DNA of 12,932 nt. Source: a virus. Lineage: Duplodnaviria > Heunggongvirae > Uroviricota > Caudoviricetes. Location of the stretch: positions 1 through 12,932 of IMG/VR virus record IMGVR_UViG_2529292920_000011; one strand, written 5' to 3'. The notes under the pieces were generated by a model that made no database searches, was not told where the DNA came from, and saw only the letters and a program-made list of their open reading frames with translations. Position numbers and translations under genes: made by a program. Shown one piece after another: positions 1 through 12,932 of the stretch; the first letter of the stretch is position 1; each line of letters opens with the position of its first letter.

Positions 1-11
1 GTTTGGGGGAA
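1..11. other. Partial invertase crossover site 1 (right half only; centre dinucleotide lies 1-2 nt upstream of the window)
   Basis: Window opens with GTTTGGGGGAA, the reverse complement of the left half of site 3 (TTCCCCCAAACC) minus one base. It sits at the 5' boundary of cassette A, as sites 2-5 sit at the other cassette boundaries. Confidence 0.5.
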
Positions 12-536
12 GGCTCTGCACTGCCCGTTGGTGTACCTGTTCCGTGGCCCTCAGCCACTCCACCAACGGGCTGGCTGAAATGCAACGGCGCAGCATTTTC
101 TTCTGAAGATTACCCCAAATTGGCACAGGCTTACCCCGCGAACAAATTACCGGATCTACGGGGTGAATTTATCCGTGGCTGGGATGATGGACGTGGCTTG
201 GATGCTGGGCGTGCCTTGCTAAGTCTTCAGGATGACTCTTTTGAAGCGCACAGGCATGAGTCCTTTTTTTATGCGGGTATTTCACGTAATGAGACCCCAT
301 TAAAAAATCTTCCAAGTTCAGACGAGATGCTGACTTTAAGTTCCACAACTAATGCCTTGTCCCCGGACAGTATTGATGCCACCAACTCGTTAATTGGTAA
401 TGACGATTACAACTGTCTTATCGAAGGGAATAAAAATAACAAACGAACAGCGACAGGACTGAGTACCAGTATTGTCGGCACAGCAGAAACACGCCCCCGC
501 AACGTTGCATTCAATTACATCGTAAGAGCTGCATGA
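3..536 (+). CDS. Tail-fibre C-terminal receptor-binding cassette A (tail-collar type), 5'-partial; the constant N-terminal part of the fibre gene must lie upstream of the window
   Basis: Frame is open from the window edge, so the 'M' in the track is an internal TTG (Leu). Conserved N-terminal block GEGSALPVGVPVPWPSATPPTGWLKCNGAAFSSE..LPDLRGEFIRGWDDGRG, an HxH motif (HRHES) and the C-terminal ETRPRNVAFNYIVRAA are shared with the other cassettes. Motif pattern matches phage tail-collar / MdpB-like fibre tips. Confidence 0.8.
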   Translation: MGEGSALPVGVPVPWPSATPPTGWLKCNGAAFSSEDYPKLAQAYPANKLPDLRGEFIRGWDDGRGLDAGRALLSLQDDSFEAHRHESFFYAGISRNETPLKNLPSSDEMLTLSSTTNALSPDSIDATNSLIGNDDYNCLIEGNKNNKRTATGLSTSIVGTAETRPRNVAFNYIVRAA

Positions 537-555
537 AAACGTTGGTTTAGGGGAA
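530..555. other. Crossover site 2 (gix/hix-like, 12+2+12)
   Basis: TGCATGAAAACG-TT-GGTTTAGGGGAA. The AAAAC..GTTT core resembles Gin/Hin sites (AAACC-NN-GGTTT). Overlaps the TGA stop of cassette A and begins the conserved leader of cassette B. Site 4 is its exact reverse complement. Confidence 0.6.
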
Positions 556-576
556 GGCTCTGCACTGCCCGTTGGT

Positions 577-1023
577 GTGCCCGTTCCGTGGCCCTTAGCA
601 ACACCACCAACGGGCTGGCTGAAATGTAACGGTGCAGCATTTTCTTCTGAAATGTACCCCAATCTGGCAAAAGCCTACCCCACCAATAAATTACCGGATT
701 TACGGGGCGAATTTATTCGTGGCTGGGATGATGGGCGAGGAATTGATGCAGCACGCGCTTTATTGAGCATTCAAACCGGGATGTTGGAAAAACACCGCCA
801 TATTGTTGTAGCTAACGATGGATATGACACAAAGGATGAATGGGAGTTGGCCACGATTTTCAAAAAAACATATACACAAGGCAGGGGGCTTGATGCCACA
901 AATACAGGAGGGAGTTTGATTCCATCACCAACGCTTCATTCACGAGGAAGTATTGGTAACACAGGTGGTAGTGAAACCCGCCCCCGCAATATTGCATTTA
1001 ACTATATCGTGAGGGCGGCTTAG
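577..1023 (+). CDS. Tail-fibre C-terminal cassette B (silent alternative cassette; frame is open from 526, through site 2)
   Basis: Same conserved N-terminal block (PVPWPLATPPTGWLKCNGAAFSSEMYP...LRGEFIRGWDDGRG), HxH (HRH) and C-terminal ETRPRNIAFNYIVRAA, with a different middle segment. No promoter or constant region is attached, so it is expressed only after rearrangement. Confidence 0.7.
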   Translation: MPVPWPLATPPTGWLKCNGAAFSSEMYPNLAKAYPTNKLPDLRGEFIRGWDDGRGIDAARALLSIQTGMLEKHRHIVVANDGYDTKDEWELATIFKKTYTQGRGLDATNTGGSLIPSPTLHSRGSIGNTGGSETRPRNIAFNYIVRAA

Positions 1024-1209
1024 TTATATTCAACTGGCTGCTGCCAGTGGTATTTCCGGCAAGTTGATATCTGGTGCCATGTTTATATCCATTGCGTTCA
1101 GCGCGTCTATATAATCCAGCACGGCGTTAAGCCGGGTGGTTTCTGCCTGCGTCAACTTCCGCCGGCCTGCAACTTCAACTGAATCAGACTTATGGAAGCC
1201 ATTGCCGCA

Positions 1210-1641
1210 TCAGCCAGTGACTGGCGCTTGGTTTCTGCCCGCTTCTACTGCGGCACTATGTTGTGCCTCAGTATCTGTCACCCATTTTTCACCATCCCAT
1301 TTATCGTATGGCGTCGACGGGGAGATAGTGGTTGTATTTTTCGGGTAGTCACCTAGCGTCGTGATTTCTTCGGTGTTTCCCGTGTCAGTGTTATAGACGG
1401 TTTCACCACGATGATCTGGCGTATACTCCCATGAATTTAAATTCTCCGAACGGCGGATAGCATAGCCCGCTTTATGTGCGCCCGGGGCATCTAAACAGGA
1501 ATTTGCCGGAATACCGACACCCGCAGCAAGATATTCAGTTGATTCGGAAATATATTCCCGTGTCTCACCATCATAGTTATAAACGACGATGTTTCCTGCC
1601 TGTACGGCAATAAGGTCATCATTTAATATCGCGTTATTCAT
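1210..1641 (-). CDS. Tail-fibre assembly chaperone (Tfa, lambda Tfa / Mu U family), N-terminal 143 codons ending at an in-frame TGA; probable pseudogene whose remnant extends to about 1030
   Basis: Recalled lambda Tfa pattern is matched (VYN.., G.PANS, W...DHRGETVY, Y.KW.G..WV.DTEA). Start ATG overlaps the stop of cassette C (TAATG coupling). Beyond the TGA at 1210-1212 the same frame still encodes a Tfa-like C-terminus (KLTQAETTRLNAVLDYIDALNAMDINMAPDINLPEIP) down to a stop at 1030-1032. Confidence 0.6.
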   Translation of the reverse strand: MNNAILNDDLIAVQAGNIVVYNYDGETREYISESTEYLAAGVGIPANSCLDAPGAHKAGYAIRRSENLNSWEYTPDHRGETVYNTDTGNTEEITTLGDYPKNTTTISPSTPYDKWDGEKWVTDTEAQHSAAVEAGRNQAPVTG

Positions 1642-2099
1642 TATGCGGTTCTCACAATATAATTGAAGGCAATATTGCGTGGGCGGGTTTCATTCCCCTC
1701 TGAGGATTCCGTTCTGTATTGACTGGTAAATCTACCGTTAATTGCACCTTGCCGGACGGCGTTATCTGTCGACAACAGACTATCCCCGCCTTTGTCATTT
1801 GGCACCAGTACCGTGTTATCCCACGCATCCCATGACCGAATATTATGATAATGACTTCCTGTTAACCACCCCTGCATGCTTAAGATGACCCTTCCGGCAT
1901 CCACCCCGCGCCCATCATCCCAGCCACGGATAAATTCACCGCGTAAGTCTGGTAATTTATTGGTGGGGTAAGCCATTGCCAGTCTGGGATACATTTCAGA
2001 AGAAAATGCTGCGCCGTTACATTTCAGCCACCCCGTTGGCGGCGTGGCTGAGGGCCATGGAACAGGTACACCAACGGGCAGTGCAGAGCCTTCCCCCAA
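1641..2099 (-). CDS. Tail-fibre C-terminal cassette C (the only cassette followed by a tfa gene)
   Basis: Conserved leader GEGSALPVGVPVPWPSATPPTGWLKCNGAAFSSEMYP..LRGEFIRGWDDGRG, HxH (HYH), C-terminal ETRPRNIAFNYIVRTA. The 'M' is an internal TTG; the frame opens inside site 3. Confidence 0.75.
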   Translation of the reverse strand: MGEGSALPVGVPVPWPSATPPTGWLKCNGAAFSSEMYPRLAMAYPTNKLPDLRGEFIRGWDDGRGVDAGRVILSMQGWLTGSHYHNIRSWDAWDNTVLVPNDKGGDSLLSTDNAVRQGAINGRFTSQYRTESSEGNETRPRNIAFNYIVRTA

Positions 2100-2116
2100 A
2101 CCAACGTTTTCATGCG
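2091..2116. other. Crossover site 3 (inverted relative to sites 1 and 2)
   Basis: TTCCCCCAAACC-AA-CGTTTTCATGCG. Central AA on the plus strand, against TT in site 2. Lies at the D/C cassette junction and overlaps the stop of cassette D. Confidence 0.6.
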
Positions 2117-2583
2117 GCTCTTACGATGTAATTAAATGCAACGTTGCGAGGGCGAGTTTCTGTACCTACATTTCCACTAATTTCACCAAACCGTTTTACA
2201 TTACGAGAGCTAATGGCTCGTAGTGAGGAAGGCACATTTAAACCGGGTTCGTCTGTTTTAACTATTCCCCCGTCCCCGTATGTAGCCAGTATTCCAGGGT
2301 CTACTCCTTCCCGTGTACTTCCCGCGGCAAGTCCACCCCCGGTCCATAATTCCATATAGTGTGCATGATCCAAAATTGTGTGTGGCTGCCAATTAAGCAG
2401 AGCGCGGCCAGCATCCACCCCGCGCCCATCATCCCAGCCGCGAATAAATTCGCCCCGTAAATCCGGTAATTTATTGGCGGGGTAGGCCTTTGCCAGATTG
2501 GGGTACATTTCAGAAGAAAATGCTGCACCGTTACATTTCAGCCAGCCCGTTGGCGGCGTGGCTGAAGGCCATGGAACGGGCAC
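2110..2583 (-). CDS. Tail-fibre C-terminal cassette D
   Basis: Conserved leader, HxH (HAH), C-terminal ETRPRNVAFNYIVRAA. Its first 63 residues are near-identical to cassette B, matching the inverted-repeat geometry. Confidence 0.75.
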   Translation of the reverse strand: MPVPWPSATPPTGWLKCNGAAFSSEMYPNLAKAYPANKLPDLRGEFIRGWDDGRGVDAGRALLNWQPHTILDHAHYMELWTGGGLAAGSTREGVDPGILATYGDGGIVKTDEPGLNVPSSLRAISSRNVKRFGEISGNVGTETRPRNVAFNYIVRAA

Positions 2584-2604
2584 ACCAACGGGCAGCGCCG
2601 AGCC

Positions 2605-2630
2605 TTCCCCTAAACCAACGTTTTCATGCA
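2605..2630. other. Crossover site 4
   Basis: TTCCCCTAAACC-AA-CGTTTTCATGCA, the exact reverse complement of site 2. Lies at the E/D cassette junction and overlaps the stop of cassette E. Confidence 0.6.
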
Positions 2631-3214
2631 GCTCTTACGATGTAATTGAATGCAACGTTGCGGGGGCGTGTTTCTGCTGTGCCGACAATACTGGTACTCA
2701 GTCCTGTCGCTGTTCGTTTGTTATTTTTATTCCCTTCGATAAGACAGTTGTAATCGTCATTACCAATTAACGAGTTGGTGGCATCAATACTGTCCGGGGA
2801 CAAGGCATTAGTTGTGGAACTTAAAGTCAGCATCTCGTCTGAACTTGGAAGATTTTTTAATGGGGTCTCATTACGTGAAATACCCGCATAAAAAAAGGAC
2901 TCATGCCTGTGCGCTTCAAAAGAGTCATCCTGAAGACTTAGCAAGGCACGCCCAGCATCCAAGCCACGTCCATCATCCCAGCCACGGATAAATTCACCCC
3001 GTAGATCCGGTAATTTGTTCGCGGGGTAAGCCTGTGCCAATTTGGGGTAATCTTCAGAAGAAAATGCTGCGCCGTTGCATTTCAGCCAGCCCGTTGGTGG
3101 AGTGGCTGAGGGCCACGGAACAGGCACACCAACGGGCAGTGCAGAGCCTTCTCCTAAACCAACGTTTTCGTCTTTATCCCTACCTATACCAACTATGTAT
3201 TTTTCACGAAACAA
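2624..3214 (-). CDS. Tail-fibre C-terminal cassette E (inverted duplicate of cassette A; silent here)
   Basis: Residues 20-196 are identical to cassette A. The frame opens only at 3226, immediately after a stop, so no constant fibre N-terminus is attached in this orientation. Confidence 0.75.
   Translation of the reverse strand: MFREKYIVGIGRDKDENVGLGEGSALPVGVPVPWPSATPPTGWLKCNGAAFSSEDYPKLAQAYPANKLPDLRGEFIRGWDDGRGLDAGRALLSLQDDSFEAHRHESFFYAGISRNETPLKNLPSSDEMLTLSSTTNALSPDSIDATNSLIGNDDYNCLIEGNKNNKRTATGLSTSIVGTAETRPRNVAFNYIVRAA
3149..3174. other. Crossover site 5 (outermost site, adjacent to the invertase gene)
   Basis: TTCTCCTAAACC-AA-CGTTTTCGTCTT. The inner half is conserved with sites 3 and 4; the outer half diverges, as expected for a site bordering non-invertible DNA. 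It lies 55 bp upstream of the invertase ATG, as gixR/cixR lie next to gin/cin. Confidence 0.6.
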
Positions 3215-3228
3215 AGAGGATGTTTTTT

Positions 3229-3828
3229 ATGCAAATTGGCTATATTCGTGTGTCAACAAATGACCAGAACACGGATTTACAACGCAATGCACTGAACTGC
3301 GCAGGATGTGAACTGATTTTTGAAGATAAAATCAGCGGAACGAAATCAGCCAGACCGGGATTGAAAAAACTGCTCAGAACGCTATCAGAAGGAGATACGC
3401 TGGTTGTCTGGAAGCTGGACAGACTGGGCAGAAGTATGAAACACCTGATCACGCTTATTGAGGAATTGCGGAAAAAAGGTGTTAATTTCCGTAGTCTGAC
3501 GGACAGCATTGACACATCAACACCCATGGGGCGTTTCTTTTTTCACGTCATGGGGGCTTTAGCCGAAATGGAACGTGAATTAATTGTAGAGCGTACACTG
3601 GCCGGGCTGGCAGCAGCACGCGCACAAGGACGCATTGGCGGACGTCGCCCGAAGTTGACAAAAGAACAACACGAGCAAATAGCGAGGCTGATTAAATACG
3701 GTCATGACAGGAAACAACTGGCGATCATTTACGACATCGGCATATCGACGATTTATCGTTATCACCCTGTAGGCGATATACAGGCTGAAGAAACAACCAG
3801 GCAGACTCAGGAAAATGAAAACCGCTAA
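3229..3828 (+). CDS. Site-specific DNA invertase, serine recombinase of the Gin/Pin/Hin/Cin family
   Basis: N-terminus MQIGYIRVSTNDQNTDLQRNAL with the catalytic Ser in the YIRVSTNDQ motif; central VVWKLDRLGRSMKHLI and GRFFFHVMGALAEMERELI; C-terminal HTH (GISTIYRY). AGAGGA Shine-Dalgarno 8 nt upstream of the ATG at 3229. The track ORF 3034-3828 is an upstream in-frame extension running through site 5 and is unlikely to be real. Confidence 0.93.
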   Translation: MQIGYIRVSTNDQNTDLQRNALNCAGCELIFEDKISGTKSARPGLKKLLRTLSEGDTLVVWKLDRLGRSMKHLITLIEELRKKGVNFRSLTDSIDTSTPMGRFFFHVMGALAEMERELIVERTLAGLAAARAQGRIGGRRPKLTKEQHEQIARLIKYGHDRKQLAIIYDIGISTIYRYHPVGDIQAEETTRQTQENENR

Positions 3829-4355: not shown

Positions 4356-7199
4356 TCAATCTTTATCGTAAAAACTGCCACGCCCGGCACGGGCGCGCCG
4401 TTCCATCTCTGCCCTGACCATTTCGCCGACCAGTTTCGCCAGTTCGCGGGGATTCTGTGTAACAACGTTATGCAGATGAACATGAATTTCACCACCAAAT
4501 CCGGAGGCAACAGGCTCCCGGTTACGGGAAGTTGCAGGAACTGATGCCACTGGCGATCGTATGGCCTCCGCCACCGGGCGGGAGCTGGCCGCAACAACAG
4601 GGACCAGCGCCGGAGGCAGCGGAGCCGGAACCACGGGTGTGATATTAATTGCGGGGGCAGGCTTACTGACCTGCGCAATCTTCCGCTCCTGCCACTCCCC
4701 ACGAACAGCAAGTGCGCGGGGCAGGTTCTTAAAGACAATATCGCCGGGGCCAATGCGTTTTTTCGTCTCATCAACCAGCTTACCTGTGTTATCAGCAATT
4801 TTGCTGAGTCTGCGTAGCGTGCCGGTATTGCTGTCTGTGAGCGGTTTGTTGTCTTTGGGGTTATCGCCTCCGGTGCCATTGCCATTTTCCACAGGCTTCG
4901 GCGGATTGATTTTCGCAATGTCTCCCTGAAACAGAGCAACCTTGTCCTGAAGAATGGCCGCACGCTGTGCGTCTTCGATTTTCTTTCTCGCCCTTTCCGC
5001 TTCATCCGGAAGCACACCGAGTTTTTCAAGTATCCACGCCAGCGTATCCAGCAACATTTTTGCAGGCGTCAGAACAAGCTGTAGCGCGCCACCAAGAACG
5101 TTACCGAATATCTCGCCAGCACTGGTACATTTATCCAGCGTTTCCTTGCTGGACTCCATCGGTGACAACAGCGATTTAAACCAGTTAAACACCTGGCTGA
5201 TCCCGCTTCCGATTGCGTCAAAAACAGGGCCAAACCGTTCAAAGGTTTCGCGCAACGGGGTCAGCCTTTCCATAATCCCGCTGAACACCCCGGCAAAAAA
5301 TGCCCTGATGGGATCCCAGTATTTCCAGATGAGAACGGCAGCTCCGGCAAGCGCAGCCACGATAAGACCGACCGGACTGAACAACGCCCCGATAGCGCCT
5401 CCCAGTAAAGAAACGGACCACGTCACCATTCCCCATAACGCAGGCAACACTCTGACAACATTCATTGACCGGGTAAGAATGTCGAAACCAAGACGCAGGG
5501 TGGCCAGCTTCCCGTAAAGCACCCCAATAACCAGTGACAACGAGCCAATCGTTGCAGTCATTGCCAGCAACGCACCGCCTGCTATCAGTAGCTGGCGCGT
5601 CAGTACCGGATGGGCCTGCGCCAGCGAGGTGATTTTTTCAAGCACCCGCGTGAACCACTGCGTGACAGAACGCAGCGGACCGTCAACCAGATCACTGATG
5701 CGAATACGAAGACCTTCCCATGCGCTGTCGAGATTTTTCAGGTCCCCATCAAGATTATCGGCCATTACTTTTGCGACGCGATCGGCCTCTCCCCTTGCCC
5801 CCTGCAATTCTCTGGTCAGTTTTTGCAGCTCTCCTGAACCAGCCGCCGCAACAAGCGTCTGCAAACCAACGAACGCCTCTTCTCCGGCGATGTCCTTGAA
5901 GAAGGAAACCTGGTCCACCTGTCCGTATTTTTGTGTCGCCTTATAGAGATCAAGCAGCACATCCTCCATCGGGCGCATTTTGCCTCTGGCGTCAGCAACT
6001 GACACTCCCAGCTCTTTCAGCGCATCAGCCGCAGCTTTTGGCGGTGATGCAAGGCGGGACAGACTTGCGCGCATGGCCGTACCAGCATCGCTTCCGCGAA
6101 GACCATTATTGGCAAGCATCCCGGCCATGGCCGCCGCTTCTTCAAGACTGATACCAAGTTTTGCGGCAACCGGACCGGTATACTTCATGGTTTCGCCCAG
6201 CGCGCGTAAATCAGTATTGGTCCGGGTGAATGCTGCTGTCAGCGTATCGCCAACCCGGTCCATTTGATCGGCTGTCAGGTTGAACTGTGTGAGGATATTG
6301 GAGCCTATATCAGCCGTCTCGCCGAGTTCGACGCCACCTGCCAGCGCCATATTAAGAACACCGGGCAATGCGGCCTGAATGGCCTGCGGAGTAAAACCAG
6401 CCATTGCCAGAAAGCTCTGCCCACTGGCGGCATCACTCGCAGTAAACTGTGTTTCAGAGCCAAGTTTTAACGCCTGCTCACGCAGCGCCTTAAACTGCGG
6501 GCTGTTTTTGTCGATTCGCGTCAGTGCCTGAACGCGGGACATCTCTTTGCCGAACCCGATCGCAGGCTGCAAAAAACGCCCGGCAGCATAGCCGCCCGCC
6601 GCTGCCGCACCAATTGCCAGCGCACCACCTGTTTTCAGTTTTCCCGCAGTTTCCTGCGCGCGCGAATACCGCTCACGCGCCCTCGTTACACGCGCAAGCG
6701 CCTGCCGTTCGCGTTCAAGCTGGTTGTTGTACTGTTCGGTGCGTCTGATGGCCTGCTGAATGGTGTTATCGCTGCCTGTCAGTGAAATGCCGTGGCGTTT
6801 CAGCTCTCCGCCAAGCTCCCGCATTTTCTGAATTTCCCGTGTGCGCGATTCATTCAGGCGTTCAAGCCGGGTGCTTAACTGCTGCATCAGCTTTTGTTGT
6901 TTTTCGCTGAGCACTGTACCCGTGCGTTGTAACTGATTAAGGGCGTTAAGCTGGCGTCGTGCTTTCACGATGCCCGCATCCGCTTTACTGACAGCGTCAC
7001 GGGCGCGCTCAAATGATCGCGCCTGACGCTCGAGATTTTTGATCGCCCCCTGCGTTCGCTGGATGGAGTCACCAAACTGCCCCATCAGGCGGCGGGCATT
7101 TTCGGCAGGCCGGGTCAGCCTGTCAACGGCGCTGAAAGCGACCCGGATATCAAGAGTCTTCATTGTCTGCATTCCCGCTGCGAAGTGCCGCCCGCTCAC
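4356..7199 (-). CDS. Tail tape measure protein (P2 gpT-like)
   Basis: Roughly 940-aa ORF with a coiled-coil N-terminal third, a Gly/Ala-rich central hydrophobic stretch (GALAIGAAAAGGYAAG) and a long helical/hydrophobic C-terminal half. Sits between the E/E' and U genes. True start is probably ATG 7172 (MQTMKTLDIR) or 7163, overlapping the E' stop. Confidence 0.9.
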   Translation of the reverse strand: MSGRHFAAGMQTMKTLDIRVAFSAVDRLTRPAENARRLMGQFGDSIQRTQGAIKNLERQARSFERARDAVSKADAGIVKARRQLNALNQLQRTGTVLSEKQQKLMQQLSTRLERLNESRTREIQKMRELGGELKRHGISLTGSDNTIQQAIRRTEQYNNQLERERQALARVTRARERYSRAQETAGKLKTGGALAIGAAAAGGYAAGRFLQPAIGFGKEMSRVQALTRIDKNSPQFKALREQALKLGSETQFTASDAASGQSFLAMAGFTPQAIQAALPGVLNMALAGGVELGETADIGSNILTQFNLTADQMDRVGDTLTAAFTRTNTDLRALGETMKYTGPVAAKLGISLEEAAAMAGMLANNGLRGSDAGTAMRASLSRLASPPKAAADALKELGVSVADARGKMRPMEDVLLDLYKATQKYGQVDQVSFFKDIAGEEAFVGLQTLVAAAGSGELQKLTRELQGARGEADRVAKVMADNLDGDLKNLDSAWEGLRIRISDLVDGPLRSVTQWFTRVLEKITSLAQAHPVLTRQLLIAGGALLAMTATIGSLSLVIGVLYGKLATLRLGFDILTRSMNVVRVLPALWGMVTWSVSLLGGAIGALFSPVGLIVAALAGAAVLIWKYWDPIRAFFAGVFSGIMERLTPLRETFERFGPVFDAIGSGISQVFNWFKSLLSPMESSKETLDKCTSAGEIFGNVLGGALQLVLTPAKMLLDTLAWILEKLGVLPDEAERARKKIEDAQRAAILQDKVALFQGDIAKINPPKPVENGNGTGGDNPKDNKPLTDSNTGTLRRLSKIADNTGKLVDETKKRIGPGDIVFKNLPRALAVRGEWQERKIAQVSKPAPAINITPVVPAPLPPALVPVVAASSRPVAEAIRSPVASVPATSRNREPVASGFGGEIHVHLHNVVTQNPRELAKLVGEMVRAEMERRARAGRGSFYDKD

Positions 7200-7416
7200 G
7201 CCAGCTAACCACTTCGCCGGGCGTCATCATGAAGATTTCGGCGGGCGACCAGTTAAAAATGGCGGCAATATCCGCCACCAGATCTTCGATGTGCTCAAAG
7301 CACACCAGGGTGATTACGCTGCCGTCTCCTGCACGCTCTTCGCGCCAGAGTCTGGCTCGCTCATAAAATTTACAGCCACAGCGCACAGCTGAATAAAATC
7401 GCGTGACGACATTTTT
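7150..7416 (-). CDS. E' extension frame (-1 relative to gpE); expressed only as an E+E' fusion by programmed -1 frameshift
   Basis: The -1 frame is open from 7416 to a stop at 7150-7152 and overlaps the 3' end of gpE (7314-7416). Slippery candidates lie in the overlap. Same arrangement as P2 E/E' and lambda G/GT. Confidence 0.6.
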   Translation of the reverse strand, partial: KNVVTRFYSAVRCGCKFYERARLWREERAGDGSVITLVCFEHIEDLVADIAAIFNWSPAEIFMMTPGEVVSWRERAALRSGNADNEDS

Positions 7417-7688
7417 TTAATCATCACTTCATCCAGTCGTGGCGAGGTCACGCGAGGCAACAGCGTAAACATGGTATCCGCTTTCAGATTCAGCACATCA
7501 GACAGCGACAGACCACGCAGGGATCCAGCCTGCTCAATAGCCCCGGTGATCTCCACATACGTGATTTTTTCGCCACCACGCTCAATTTGTCGGGTCAGTT
7601 TTACGCCACGTTCGACAGCCATATCCTCACCTGCCGTCACATCATCCGCCACGGTGTTATTCCGGGTTTCAGTATCGATGTCTTTCAT
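7314..7688 (-). CDS. Tail assembly chaperone gpE-like
   Basis: 124-aa ORF between the tube and tape measure genes. AGGAGA Shine-Dalgarno 6 nt upstream of the ATG at 7688. A -1 frame (E') overlaps its 3' end. Confidence 0.75.
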   Translation of the reverse strand: MKDIDTETRNNTVADDVTAGEDMAVERGVKLTRQIERGGEKITYVEITGAIEQAGSLRGLSLSDVLNLKADTMFTLLPRVTSPRLDEVMIKKMSSRDFIQLCAVAVNFMSEPDSGAKSVQETAA

Positions 7689-7743
7689 CAGTTGTCTCCT
7701 TTTCAGTCAGAGGCGACGCACTGCGCCGCCTGCATATTACTTA

Positions 7744-8256
7744 TCAGCCAAGCCCAAGCGCGGAACGGATACGGTCAGGCACAATGTCCTTGCCGTCCTT
7801 CCGGTAGATGTGGTTCAACAGGTCGATTTCCCACAGCGGGCGATCGTTAACGCTCAGCTTGTAGTAGGTGTTTTTGACAGCGTAAGTGTGTGATGTGGCT
7901 TCGCCCTGTTTGGCTTCCCCCATATCAATTTCCGTCACACGCCCGCGCATCTCGATTTCATACAGATCGCTTTCTGCATCGGTGTAGTATTCACCCGCAA
8001 AACGCAGCAGCGTGCCGTCAATCGTGCCGCCATATTTAAGGAACAGCGCACGAACAGCTCCCCCCATGACAAAACTCGCATCAAGCGCGGAGTCGTCCAG
8101 ACCGAGATCAATACTTACCGCCCCCATCATGCCACCCCCCCGGTAGCTGTCGGTTTTGCGCGTCAGTTTGGGCGGCGTGACGGATGTCACTTTACCCACT
8201 TCGTTTTCACCATCCACAAACAACGTAAAAAAGCGAAGATGTTTTGGTACAGCCAT
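7744..8256 (-). CDS. Tail tube protein (P2 FII-like)
   Basis: 170-aa ORF immediately downstream of the sheath gene, with a 1-nt stop/start overlap (TGATG). Size and position are typical of the FII tube family. Confidence 0.88.
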   Translation of the reverse strand: MAVPKHLRFFTLFVDGENEVGKVTSVTPPKLTRKTDSYRGGGMMGAVSIDLGLDDSALDASFVMGGAVRALFLKYGGTIDGTLLRFAGEYYTDAESDLYEIEMRGRVTEIDMGEAKQGEATSHTYAVKNTYYKLSVNDRPLWEIDLLNHIYRKDGKDIVPDRIRSALGLG

Positions 8257-9597: not shown

Positions 9598-10338
9598 ATG
9601 ACCGACACCACCATGCAATTGCTCAGTCAGGGCACAGACCCCGTAAAAATGCCGGATTTTGATATTCTCGCGGAGGGGAAAAGGCTGTCCGGCGTGGCAG
9701 AGCGCCTGATGAGTCTGTCACTGACCGACAACCGGGGATTTGAAGCAGACCAGCTCACCATCACGCTGGATGATGCGGATGGTCAGTTGCAGCTACCGCC
9801 ACGGGGCGCGCGTCTGACGGTTCTCATTGGCTGGAAAGGCGAACCGCTGACAGAAAAAGGTTCTTACATTGTTGATGAAATCGCACACGAAGGACCGCCG
9901 GACAGGCTGACGGTTTCAGCCAGAAGCGCAGATTTTCGGGATGAATTTAACGTTAAACGTGAGGTGTCCTGGCATGATGTGACCGTTGAGCGTGTGGTAT
10001 CCGCCATCGCTCATCGGTACGGCCTGAAACCGCAAATCAGCGAAATGCTGATGGATATCGAAATCGACCACGCCGACCAGACCGAAGAAAGCGACATGTC
10101 CTTCCTTACGCGCATGGCGGAAATGCTGGGCGCAATCACCACGGTAAAAAGCGGTAATCTGTTATTCATCATGCCAGGCGGTGGCGTGAACGCACAGGGC
10201 CAGCCGTTGCCATCGTTCGCCATCACACGCAGCAGCGGCGATCGCCATCAGTTCCGCATTGCTGACCGCGAGGCGTATACGGGGGTACGCGCCTACTGGC
10301 TTGATCTTAATTACGGGAAAAAGAAAAAGTCAGCGTGA
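9598..10338 (+). CDS. gpD-like tail protein (P2 late control gene D family), N-terminal 246 codons, ended prematurely by a frame change
   Basis: ATG at 9598 preceded by GGGAGGG (the track start 9466 is an upstream extension). Sequence ...LTVLIGWKGEPL...LTVSARSADFRDEF...SFLTRMAEMLGA...YTGVRAYWLDLNYGKKKKSA* stops inside an A-rich tract. Confidence 0.75.
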   Translation: MTDTTMQLLSQGTDPVKMPDFDILAEGKRLSGVAERLMSLSLTDNRGFEADQLTITLDDADGQLQLPPRGARLTVLIGWKGEPLTEKGSYIVDEIAHEGPPDRLTVSARSADFRDEFNVKREVSWHDVTVERVVSAIAHRYGLKPQISEMLMDIEIDHADQTEESDMSFLTRMAEMLGAITTVKSGNLLFIMPGGGVNAQGQPLPSFAITRSSGDRHQFRIADREAYTGVRAYWLDLNYGKKKKSA

Positions 10339-10706
10339 AACGCCGCAAACCGCCCAAGCTCAAAAAGGAGAAAAGCAGCAGCCGTGAAGGTGATTATATG
10401 GAAGGCGCGGAAGGCAATGTTTTTGTGTTACGCAAGACTTATCAGAACGAGCAGGCAGCAAGACGCGCAGCGGCGGCAAAGTGGCAGCAGCTACAACGCG
10501 GAGCCGCATCATTCTCCATCACGCTGGCGCGTGGACGTGCAGAACTCTACCCCGAAATGCATGGCACGGTAACAGGATTTAAAAGCGAGATTGATAATCA
10601 GGACTGGATTATTGCAAAAGCCGAGCACACCATTGATAACAGCGGCTTTACCACACAGCTTGAGCTTGAAGCAAAAATCCCGGAATGGATAGCAGAAACA
10701 GAATAA
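10335..10706 (+). CDS. gpD-like tail protein, C-terminal part in the -1 frame (frame open from 10311)
   Basis: ...AAAKWQQLQRGAASFSITLARGRAELYPEMHGTVTGFKSEID...GFTTQLELEAKIPEWIAETE is the continuation of a single gpD. Together the two parts give about 370 aa, the normal gpD size. Confidence 0.7.
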   Translation: MKRRKPPKLKKEKSSSREGDYMEGAEGNVFVLRKTYQNEQAARRAAAAKWQQLQRGAASFSITLARGRAELYPEMHGTVTGFKSEIDNQDWIIAKAEHTIDNSGFTTQLELEAKIPEWIAETE

Positions 10707-10954: not shown

Positions 10955-11902
10955 ATGATTGGACAATTTTTAAGTGCAACAGAGATTTTAGCAAAGAACT
11001 ATGTTCGTAATAAAATGGTTAAAAATCCATTTTATTCGAATTTAAAATGGAATTTTGTTGAAAAAAACATCATAAGATTAACATCCTCACCGGTTAAATC
11101 AGTACTTTGCATATCAGCTTTTTCATTTGTACTACTTTATGTTGGATATTTAAACGAATTATTTATAAAAAAGAATCTTTTACATTATTTCCCGTTTAGG
11201 CATTCATTAACCGAATGGCAAACAACCATTTTAAGTGGCCAATTGACAATTATTGGTATTGTATACCCCCTTGTTATAGGTTTAGTAAGTGTCTTATTCC
11301 AAAAAAAAGCAGATAGAAAAATAGCCCAAACTGCTTATCAGCGTTACTCAGGATTCATGCTTGCTGGACTCAGCGGGCTTTTCTTATCAGGATTTATACT
11401 TCTCAGTGTACTAATTAAAACTGTCTTTGGAAGTTATCTTTATGGTATAGCCTGTCTAATCAGCATATTATGGCTTTTGATAAACATAGTTCTTTCTATT
11501 TGGTTCTTTATCGTGAGCCTTGAAATTCTTGATGATGTAAAACGGCAAATAATTATAAAGCGATACATTGCCTTCGAAATAGTAATGCCCCATATTTGTA
11601 ACAAAATCTCAGCCAATCTTAGGTTATACCCTATCTATCAAAAACATAACTATTCAAATTTAGAAATCAAGCAAGCCGATTACAAAGGAGAATACATATC
11701 TGTGGCTAGCAGTTATTCTAAGGAAGATGAGTTAAGTTTATATCACCGTCCTTTTCAACTTATTCTTAATCTTATTAATTACCAACTAAAAAAAAGAATC
11801 ATTTTGCGTCATTTGTCATTGGTGATAATCGTGCAAAAGAAACAGAATCCACGGGTAAGATACTTTTTAGCGTTAAAAATATCAAACCAGACAGCTTATT
11901 AA
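10955..11902 (+). CDS. Multi-pass membrane protein of unknown function (4-5 predicted TM helices), first part of a probable larger gene
   Basis: 315-codon open frame in about 30% GC DNA, where stops are frequent. Hydrophobic segments: VLCISAFSFVLLYVGYL, LTIIGIVYPLVIGLVSVLF, GFMLAGLSGLFLSGFILLSVLI, YLYGIACLISILWLLINIVLSIWFFIVSL. No family recognised. Confidence 0.65.
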   Translation: MIGQFLSATEILAKNYVRNKMVKNPFYSNLKWNFVEKNIIRLTSSPVKSVLCISAFSFVLLYVGYLNELFIKKNLLHYFPFRHSLTEWQTTILSGQLTIIGIVYPLVIGLVSVLFQKKADRKIAQTAYQRYSGFMLAGLSGLFLSGFILLSVLIKTVFGSYLYGIACLISILWLLINIVLSIWFFIVSLEILDDVKRQIIIKRYIAFEIVMPHICNKISANLRLYPIYQKHNYSNLEIKQADYKGEYISVASSYSKEDELSLYHRPFQLILNLINYQLKKRIILRHLSLVIIVQKKQNPRVRYFLALKISNQTAY

Positions 11903-12932
11903 TAAAAATACTTAAGCAATGTTTTTATAGGGCTCCGATTAAAGGAGGAGATTTTTCCGTAAGTCTTACAATGCAGGCTATAACAGCAGATACGTATATG
12001 TATCTGCGGGATTCTGATCTCTTTAGTTTTGACGATGCTATCTCTGCATTAATTAATAACTTTAATAATCTCTGCGATTTGTATTTTTTTCAAGATGACA
12101 ATACCAACAATAATTTCTTACTGATCACTACAGAATTATTTGAACGGAGTTTTCAATATGAGTTTTCAGATGAAGTTTATAAAATATCAAATAATTCCAT
12201 GGATAAAATTAATCTTTCTGAAAGATTTTTTGAATTATGTCTTTGGAGCGGAGTGCGTATTCTTAATAATAGAAAACATCTTATCAGCAATGAACTTTGT
12301 ATCTATATGGGAATTACTCGTTCACAATGGTCAATATTAACAGAATGGTTCCGAAACAACCAATCACTCTTAAATGCCTCGCTTCGTTCACGTTATAATC
12401 GTATATTAAGAACCTATGCCACTGTTTGGGAGCAATATCAAGAAAGCATCAACTTTCGTTTCTGCAATACAGAGAATTCAGATTTATTTGAATTATTTTG
12501 CAAAACGCAACTACAAGAACTTCCATCGATCATTATTGATGCAACACAGACTCGCGATCCTTCTACTATTGATACAGCCGTCGATCTTATTAACCGATGG
12601 CAGCACTCAATGAATATTGACAGCCATTCGGTAGAAAAATACAGTTACCAAGGCCAGCTTTTTAACCCGGGTTTTTTCATCTCCAAAAAACTAAACTTCA
12701 ATTCAGACAGAGAGTGGTTCAATATTGCCATCATAAATGCGTTGACTGACATGCGTATATGCACATGTCTTTATCTGACATCAAGAATCAATACTTCTGA
12801 CAAACTAATGACACATTACATTAAACTTATTTTAGAGGGTAAACTTATTGACCAAACCGGTGGATATGAAACTCCCACTGAAGAAATTGATAATGCAAGC
12901 CAACTAATCAAGATATTAGTTAGAATCTGCCT
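11779..12932 (+). CDS. Long ORF of unknown function, 3'-partial (runs off the window); probable continuation of the membrane-protein gene in the -1 frame
   Basis: I translated this frame by hand; it has no stop from 11779 to the window end (about 384 codons) in AT-rich DNA. First ATG is at 11971; AGGAGG at 11944-11949 is too far from it to be a convincing RBS. It is not in the ORF track, presumably because it has no stop in the window. Confidence 0.6.

Follow-up and report, generated by a model that had tools for sequence, protein, structure and literature searches.

Inversion Systems for Tail Fibers

The Gin-controlled G segment of phage Mu and the Cin-controlled C segment of phage P1 each contain two crossover sites, and inversion exchanges the C terminus of a tail fiber together with an assembly gene, each of the two alternatives having its own. 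More than two sites are found in the Min region of plasmid p15B, a multiple-inversion region reportedly described by Sandmeier, Iida and Arber in 1990–1992, and in its P1-like phage-plasmid relatives, in which a Din-group serine invertase selects among alternative 3′ ends of one tail-fiber gene. Min is said to occur as 240 isomers; in a state-space model, six sites yield the same number of states. The R64 “shufflon” likewise uses multiple inversions to pick the C-terminal segment of one adhesin gene (the PilV tips), but its recombinase, Rci, is a tyrosine recombinase and its sfx sites are asymmetric. In the “shufflon” of a P2-like prophage of EPEC E2348/69, coexisting isomers have been demonstrated by sequencing and PCR, with four isomers validated by PCR (Goldberg et al. 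2014, PMC4272514). The EPEC locus in our comparison (L175; related loci are denoted by L and a number), with three sites and three alternative C-termini, matches the published one.

The stretch of DNA analyzed here (the “window”) is the entire 12,932-nt draft contig AIEZ01000017.1 and contains the invertible end of the tail-fiber gene of a P2-like E. coli prophage, organized as a Gin/Min-type multiple-inversion switch. It shares with L175 the prophage family, the site sequences, the invertase, and the cassette architecture. L175, however, is limited to three sites and three tips, none of them duplicated; the window shows five sites or more, and one of its tips occurs twice. The invertase family and the exchange of fiber ends by inversion are common to the Mu and P1 systems, from which the window differs in that its short tips form an array with just one assembly gene, attached to cassette C only. 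It differs from Min in its host element, a P2-like prophage on the chromosome, in its five sites, and in having one cassette twice. The repetition is not unique, as a P1-like plasmid (L010) that holds the window's cassette types T1, B, C, and D, plus T5 and others, also has repeats. A switch of the R64 type, with Rci and sfx sites, is excluded, as the recombinase of the window is a serine recombinase.

Anatomy of the Switch

The switch comprises five tip cassettes, each beginning at a 26-bp crossover site, one assembly gene, and one serine invertase. Cassette A (1–536, plus strand; ORF 3–536, 177 aa) is a type T1 tip, composed of a collar domain (Pfam Collar, PF07484, E = 1.9e-14) and a variable receptor-binding end; its first base falls outside the contig. 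Its stop codon (534–536) lies inside the left half of crossover site s2 (530–555, plus strand; core 542–543), which reads TGCATGAAAACG TT GGTTTAGGGGAA. Cassette B (544–1023, plus strand) was defined by its ORF and by Pfam and encodes a 159-aa tip of a type other than T1 that occurs also in L001, L002, and L004–L009. Cassette C (1641–2102, minus strand; 153 aa), delimited by ORF, Pfam, and comparison of related loci, is followed downstream by the tail-fiber assembly (chaperone) gene (1024–1641, minus strand), which was recognized from Pfam Caudo_TAP and by aligning it to the unbroken versions in L001, L002, and L004. The window copy of this gene is broken, with a +1/−1 pair of homopolymer indels (near 1238–1240 and near 1161–1163) and an in-frame TGA at 1210–1212. 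Cassettes B and C are always joined tail-to-tail via the assembly gene, forming a central two-faced unit.

The remaining cassettes lie on the minus strand. Site s3 (2091–2116, core 2103–2104) is followed by cassette D (2110–2616; ORF and Pfam, 168 aa), site s4 (2605–2630, core 2617–2618), and cassette E (2624–3160), identified as a second T1 copy by its ORF and by base-by-base and leader comparisons. Site s5 (3149–3174, core 3161–3162) is the outer boundary, adjoining the invertase. Sites s2 to s5, all four located by sequence and site scan, are complete; with the one cut site, two of the five are on the plus and three on the minus strand. They have imperfect dyad symmetry around a 2-bp core and are present in inverted orientations. 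Each cassette start bears a site of the form ..AAAACG TT GGTTTRGGRGAAGG, and the site at the junction with the constant fiber part in relatives is TTCTTGATTACC TT GGTTTGGGGGAA. The window sites resemble the hix/gix consensus.

The invertase gene (3229–3828, plus strand) encodes a member of the Gin/Hin/Cin/Pin/Min group of serine DNA invertases, with an N-terminal resolvase domain (Resolvase, PF00239, E = 6.7e-52) and a C-terminal helix-turn-helix (HTH_7, PF02796, E = 1.2e-11). Its residues 1–185 match the Gin structures 3UJ3 and 4M6F with E values of about 1e-90, and the structure of the Hin DNA-binding domain (1HCR) is matched as well. Din-group switches have a Fis-dependent recombinational enhancer within the invertase gene, toward its 5′ end; by eye, 3229–3330 resembles the 5′ region of hin.

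In the relatives, the constant fiber part reads in frame into whatever cassette adjoins it, and among L002, L005, L006, L009, and L176–L185 the same cassette sets are permuted, the breakpoints lying at the cores. Sites, Collar cassettes, serine invertase, and these permutations together bear out the multi-site inversion switch proposed in the initial annotation. As judged from sequence, the presence of more than two sites is expected to give one tail-fiber gene several alternative 3′ ends.

Extent of the Inverted Repeat

A repeat search within the window found inverted arms at 1–759 and 2401–3159 with 97% complementarity. When the arms are compared base by base, position x being paired with 3160−x, the only exact stretch pairs 36–560 (left arm) with 2600–3124 (right arm), 525 bp in each case. 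An exact inverted repeat of this length within 13 kb is far beyond chance. The initial description gave about 660 bp of exact inverted duplication; the inverted repeat is there, but exactness holds over 525 bp only, and the arms 1–662 and 2498–3159 contain 11 mismatches (98.3% identity). Those at 5, 8, and 35 are third-codon-position, synonymous changes, and cassettes A and E encode the same tip throughout (177 of 177 aa), just as had been claimed. Past 560, mismatches occur at 561, 564, 588, 594, 596, 600, 603, and 606 and become denser from 738. Extension of the duplication beyond 560 was rejected: the similarity there is that of the conserved collar-domain leaders of cassettes B and D, which are 0.89–0.93 identical in every related locus examined. 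Positions 3160–3174 stay unpaired, as the contig stops 2 nt past the core of the partner site.

This left end also bears on which tip is made. As the contig begins 2 nt after a crossover core, the designation of A as the expressed cassette finds no support: a T1 cassette at this position is joined to the constant fiber part in L001 but has another cassette ahead of it in L002.

Leaders of the Two T1 Copies

The two copies differ only at relative positions (rel) 6, 9, and 36, and at all three copy E has the B-type state. Its leader is chimeric. The first 38 nt (3123–3160) are of the cassette-B type and the remainder is T1, with the junction between 3122 and 3125; rel 1–38 are identical to the B-type leader in eight other loci. 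The match is not to the cassette B of the window itself, which has G at rel 9, where copy E has A. Independent point mutation was rejected as the source of the three differences, all of which are B-type and clustered in the first 36 nt. The leader of copy A is identical to those of single-copy T1 cassettes in L004, L007, and eight of L176–L185; it is the “native” T1 leader, found on all ten single-copy T1 cassettes adjoining the invertase. Mosaic leaders occur in several loci; in L001, a comparable patch at rel 36–60 matches the downstream neighbor, with rel 21 T1-like.

Duplicated Cassettes in Related Loci

Duplicated cassettes are found in several related loci, including those of complete genomes: E. 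coli 160-11H1 (two prophages), strain 23CRST001, and a P1-like plasmid. T1 stands at both ends in L001 and L007, L008 has a T10 pair, L122 a T9 pair, and L010 has pairs of T1, T5, and T10; a duplicate is present in 2 of 17 invertase-anchored loci. Full-text literature searches, the range of which did not include the classical Min papers, returned no account of duplicated cassettes in such switches.

The T1 copies of one locus show no difference over 477 body positions; between genomes, T1 cassettes show 2–45 differences, save a few identical ones. The two window copies share private substitutions at rel 121 and rel 531 relative to eight single-copy relatives. These patterns point to a recent origin of the window duplication within the genome. 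A duplication ancestral with that of L001 and L007 was judged unlikely, given that the leader junctions differ, that T1 is single-copy in the close relative L004 and in ten loci sharing the invertase-proximal ORF, and that the L010 pair is 23 differences away. Recombination in switches of this type yields such duplicates as an ordinary and recurring by-product, and no new machinery is involved.

Origin of the Duplicate

From the chimeric leader of copy E, recent homologous exchange, which the initial annotation had put forward as gene conversion, is likely to lie behind the duplicate. The reading favored here, at a probability of about 0.45, is that homologous recombination took place out of register (unequally) in the conserved leaders and that the invertase then shuffled the cassettes. 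The Gin/Min-type serine invertase would recombine pairs of oppositely oriented 26-bp sites, one at the start of each tip cassette of about 0.5 kb, so that the constant part of the fiber gene could be followed by any cassette. Unequal exchange between the 215-nt conserved leaders of T1 and a cassette B then lying downstream of it, on sister chromosomes or on related prophage copies, would yield a tandem T1–T1′–B in which the leader of T1′ is B-type over its first 38 nt. By two ordinary inversions, T1′ could then have reached the invertase-side arm, giving the present inverted layout. By reasoning under the site rules, that layout is reachable from T1–T1′–B in two inversions.

We infer the crossover step and the order of events, and likewise the presence of both copies in one locus as the contig has it; this co-location rests on the assembler, the contig being a short draft one with a crossover site at its end. 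Several details sit uneasily with unequal crossing over. The mismatch at rel 9 means that the donor was not the present B leader unless one further change occurred, and the units of L007, L008, and L010, exact from core to core, are not predicted unless later conversion or shuffling erased the junction. The L001 leader is a patch with no clean 5′ replacement (rel 21 being T1-like) and looks more like gene conversion. The number of cassettes among relatives ranges from 3 to 12, so that a unit added is indistinguishable from a unit replaced.

Another reading is gene conversion, in which a different resident cassette would have been overwritten by T1 through non-reciprocal homologous recombination, with the leader and the 3′ end and site as arms and the cassette number unchanged. 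Homologous exchange among cassettes is evident from the mosaic leaders, the rel 36–60 patch of L001 resembles a conversion tract, and the identity of the four T1 copies in 160-11H1 suggests homogenization between prophages; a replaced fifth cassette is conceivable in view of L002 and L176, which have five distinct cassettes including T1, B, C, and D. Such an event, however, would need two exchanges flanking about 300 nt of complete heterology, between arms of which one, the leader, is no more than about 85% identical and the other, the 3′ end, is very short, and a single unequal crossover yields the same junction. Gene conversion is judged unlikely as the source of copy E.

An assembly artifact, in which a single T1 unit was used twice from mixed inversion isomers or the T1 copies of two prophages were stitched together, is about as improbable. 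That regions of this kind break draft assemblies, as had been suspected, is evident from the window contig and from the many other draft contigs that end at a crossover site, the equivalent of s5 being a frequent end point in other genomes. The window is itself a complete draft contig whose left end is 2 nt from a crossover core, and it contains homopolymer indels typical of error-prone reads. By reasoning, L179-like and L180-like isomers, if mixed, together provide all junctions of the contig and would stop the walk exactly there; several such prophages per genome, moreover, are common in E. coli (median 2 places). Against this, the differences at 5, 8, and 35 lie inside the block moved by inversion, so one unit in two orientations cannot give both leaders. 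Nor does the leader of E agree at rel 9 with that of the window's own B, as a consensus mix of local reads would, and the switch between rel 36 and rel 39 is too sharp for a column-majority artifact. The same layout occurs in complete genomes (L001, L007, L008, and L010). The two-prophage chimera is a variant that these arguments do not reach.

Duplication by the invertase itself is highly improbable. It would involve rare intermolecular recombination at same-oriented sites between sister genomes in different isomers and would be exact from core to core. Identity in the pairs of L007, L008, and L010 (T1 and T5) does begin at the core and end 5–17 nt past the next, but in the window it starts 37 nt inside the unit, and later shuffling after any duplication would also leave core-to-core limits. 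Gin/Hin-type invertases, furthermore, strongly disfavor both intermolecular and direct-site reactions. A recent inversion that copied a tip, also suggested initially, is mechanistically impossible for a conservative serine invertase.

Consequences of Duplication

With unequal recombination between leaders as the preferred reading, homologous recombination would act atop site-specific shuffling and alter what the array contains, with tips being duplicated and presumably also lost, which would be why relatives hold 3 to 12 cassettes. Rearrangement of the locus through its long repeats by a RecA-dependent route is plausible as well. Under a simple model in which every pair of sites recombines equally, duplication raises the T1 share of expressed states from 1/3 to 1/2, or from 1/4 to 2/5 if a further cassette precedes A.

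A more speculative idea, and one we consider quite doubtful, is that a stochastic switch with many states might use the copy number of a cassette as a “weight” open to selection. If so, a duplicated tip on opposite arms or in the outermost positions, as in L001, L007, and possibly the window, would raise the fraction of particles with that tip, and the largest inversion would leave the phenotype unchanged. The arrays would then undergo birth-and-death evolution, in which units come and go under selection on host availability, and duplicates would be more than neutral leftovers of recombination. In practical terms, such regions systematically break and may scramble draft assemblies, and statements about the “expressed cassette” or the “number of tips” are therefore unsafe when drawn from short contigs.

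Prophage Context

Among 5,426 complete E. coli genomes, none matches the invertase-bearing part of the window at ≥99%. The two genes downstream of gpD gave no match by Pfam or PADLOC. The P2-like assignment is reflected in the tail genes of the window (Pfam Phage_P2_GpU and Phage_GPD). Gene calls in L013 include PhageMin_Tail, Phage_P2_GpE, Phage_tube, and Phage_sheath, and relatives carry the baseplate genes V, W, J, and I upstream.

Anatomy and Identity of the Switch

Five reading frames that begin with a phage tail collar domain, cassettes A (1-536, + strand), B (544-1023, +), C (1641-2102, -), D (2110-2616, -), and E (2624-3160, -), are arranged around a reading frame for a tail-fibre assembly protein, or chaperone (1024-1641, -). 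These are followed by an invertase (3229-3828, +) with resolvase and HTH_7 domains that matches the Gin structures 3UJ3 and 4M6F at E values of about 1e-90, and by P2-type gpU, tape measure, gpE, tube, sheath, and gpD genes. Each cassette starts at a 26-bp site, xxCATGAAAACG TT GGTTTRGGRGAA, and the constant part of the fibre gene in related complete genomes terminates in TTCTTGATTACC TT GGTTTGGGGGAA, in frame with whichever cassette comes next. The region is 92-97% identical to E. coli P2-like prophages and 86-90% identical to P1-like phage-plasmids. The same cassette types recur in related loci in varied order and orientation, with breakpoints at the site cores, and in all of these loci cassettes change orientation across the assembly gene, those between it and the constant part lying opposite to those between it and the invertase. 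EPEC E2348/69 has a homologous locus with three sites and as many tips, which matches the P2-like prophage “shufflon” for which four isomers have been demonstrated by sequencing and PCR (PMC4272514). On the strength of its cassettes, sites, invertase, permuted relatives, and the EPEC match, the region is identified from its sequence as a Gin/Min-type multiple-inversion tail-fibre switch, and is thus of a known kind. Cassette C alone is followed by the assembly gene, in the window as in every relative examined; the other tips would have none downstream when expressed, and may fold unaided or draw on it in trans.

Extent of the Duplication

The initial annotation described cassettes A and E, both of type T1, as an exact inverted duplicate of about 660 bp. 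A repeat search of the window returned inverted arms at 1-759 and 2401-3159 with 97% complementarity. Compared base by base, with position x paired with 3160-x, these arms contain a single exact run of 525 bp (36-560 with 2600-3124), so that the original description was too generous. Mismatches between the arms fall, toward the 5' end, at positions 5, 8, and 35; eight more lie within 561-606, followed by 672, 682, and 720, with dense divergence from 738. Beyond 560, the repeat consists of the conserved leader (the 5' collar-domain part) of the neighbouring cassettes B and D, and it lies outside the duplication because the identity between B-type and D-type leaders is 0.89-0.93 in all related loci compared. 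As the three 5' mismatches occupy third codon positions (TTG/TTA, GGG/GGA, and GTA/GTG), both reading frames encode the same 177 residues, and the identity of the two tips was correctly recognized.

Origin of the Second T1 Copy

Serine invertases exchange strands conservatively at a 2-bp core without copying DNA and move a unit from core to core as a block, which eliminates the earlier suggestion of an inversion that copied a tip. The differences at 5, 8, and 35 lie within that block. The leader of A is that of all ten single-copy T1 cassettes that adjoin an invertase, as well as of L004, L007, and the L001 copy at 7588 (related loci). Cassette E has the state typical of B at all three differing positions; its first 38 positions are identical to the B-type leader in eight other loci, and from position 39 of the cassette it is T1. 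This makes cassette E a B/T1 chimera whose parts meet between 3122 and 3125 of the window, and this chimeric leader, together with T1 bodies identical within the locus, supports the proposal of a recent homologous event as the likely origin.

The simplest route to this pair would begin with misaligned sister or homologous arrays, in which an unequal crossover between a B leader and a T1 leader would yield T1-T1'-B; two inversions within the site rules would then produce T1-B-assembly gene-C-D-T1'-invertase, the layout of the window. A comparable leader patch in L001 (cassette positions 36-60) matches its downstream neighbour. The weak points of this route are that cassette position 9 is A in E and G in the window's own B, that the L001 leader pattern is patchy in a way that resembles gene conversion, and that the copies in three other loci (L007, L008, and L010) are exact from core to core. 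Such exactness would also follow if the copies had been shuffled later or converted over their full length, or if the invertase had, rarely, acted between molecules.

Contig Boundary and the Question of an Artefact

The window is the entire 12,932-nt draft contig AIEZ01000017.1 of assembly GCA_000249135.2, and it opens at position 1 on the second G of GGTTTGGGGGAA, 2 nt past the crossover core; whatever precedes A therefore lies outside it, and the label of A as the expressed cassette in the initial annotation is unsupported. Among relatives, L001 has a T1 cassette joined to the constant part, and L002 has one with another cassette ahead of it. Draft contigs of many Enterobacterales, this one included, stop at or within ~30 nt of such a site, bearing out the assembly hazard raised in the initial annotation, and among the 37 closest genome loci, 14 have a contig that stops <400 nt upstream of the invertase. 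In L020, L021, L022, L025, L027, L037, L038, and L096, the invertase-adjoining crossover site lies exactly at the contig end or within a few tens of nt of it (in the first 1-40 nt); the break at position 1 joins this pattern of systematic assembly breaks at these switches.

That the duplicate is itself an assembly artefact, with one T1 unit used twice or two prophages of the same strain joined in a chimera, is unlikely. A mix of isomers of a four-cassette locus, in states like those of the related loci L179 and L180, provides all junctions of the contig and would halt an assembler at the T1 start, and homopolymer indels in the assembly gene and gpD indicate either a draft with errors or decayed genes. 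A single T1 unit used twice is nevertheless difficult to reconcile with two distinct leaders on A and E, an E leader unlike the local B leader, and the abrupt switch between cassette positions 36 and 39; a chimera of two prophages may still account for the pair.

The assembly-gene indels, +1 and -1 in short G/C runs near 1238-1240 and 1161-1163, are ~76 nt apart, and the frame-shifted sequence between them contains a stop codon at 1210-1212; L001, L002, and L004 have intact copies of the gene, and the indels represent either draft sequencing error or an inactivated chaperone. In gpD (9598-10706), an A6 run reads A5 at about 10323, producing two reading frames; its L011 counterpart, 99.9% identical apart from this, is uninterrupted.

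Duplicates in Other Loci

Typing of all cassettes in the fetched loci revealed further duplicates. E. coli 160-11H1 has two P2-like prophages, in each of which T1 occupies the two outermost positions (L001, 5000-5536 and 7588-8124; L007, 5776-6312 and 7886-8422), one copy joined to the constant part and the other adjoining the invertase; all four bodies are identical. This placement may be non-random, as uniform shuffling gives it probabilities of 1/6 and 1/3, in a sample too small to judge. Strain 23CRST001 (L008) has an inverted T10 pair, a P1-like plasmid (L010) has an inverted T1 pair with direct T5 and T10 pairs, and a viral-contig collection contributes a direct T9 pair (L122) and a 3-kb quasi-palindrome of the central unit (L098). 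In the less biased, invertase-anchored sample, duplicates occur in 2 of 17 multi-cassette loci; none was found in 10 further loci with an identical invertase-proximal T1 reading frame.

T1 bodies of one locus show no difference over 477 positions; between genomes, T1 cassettes show 2-45 differences, apart from a few identical ones, and both window copies share two private substitutions relative to eight single-copy relatives. Each duplicate thus either arose recently within its genome or is being kept identical there. As judged from these comparisons, duplicated cassettes have arisen more than once. A full-text literature search, with the classical Min papers outside its coverage, found no description of such duplicates; an earlier one is possible.

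In the L098 quasi-palindrome (4901-7941, 98.9% self-complementary), a B-assembly gene-C unit meets a second one, in the order C-assembly gene-B, head-to-head inside truncated C leaders; the structure is either a genuine inverted duplication or a product of the assembly. At 7723-9672 of L008, an IS4-like ISVsa5 insertion splits the tail-fibre assembly gene.

Consequences for Expression

In a model of single units flanking a two-faced centre, with equal rates for every site pair, all arrangements can be reached: the present array has 48 labelled states, and one with six sites has 240. With the second copy, T1 accounts for 1/2 of the expressed states instead of 1/3; with a further cassette ahead of A, its share would be 2/5 instead of 1/4. 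These values are modelled rather than measured. The outermost inversion, previously taken to change nothing, would be phenotypically silent only with A joined directly to the constant part. The duplicate is a structural variant that recurs and is probably neutral.

Genes beyond gpD

At 10955-11902 and 11971-12932 of the window are two genes that in relatives sit between gpD and ogr, neither of which has a match in Pfam or PADLOC. One encodes 315 residues; its neighbour runs off the contig end and has 700 in the related locus L012. Both could be cargo in a P2-type variable spot.
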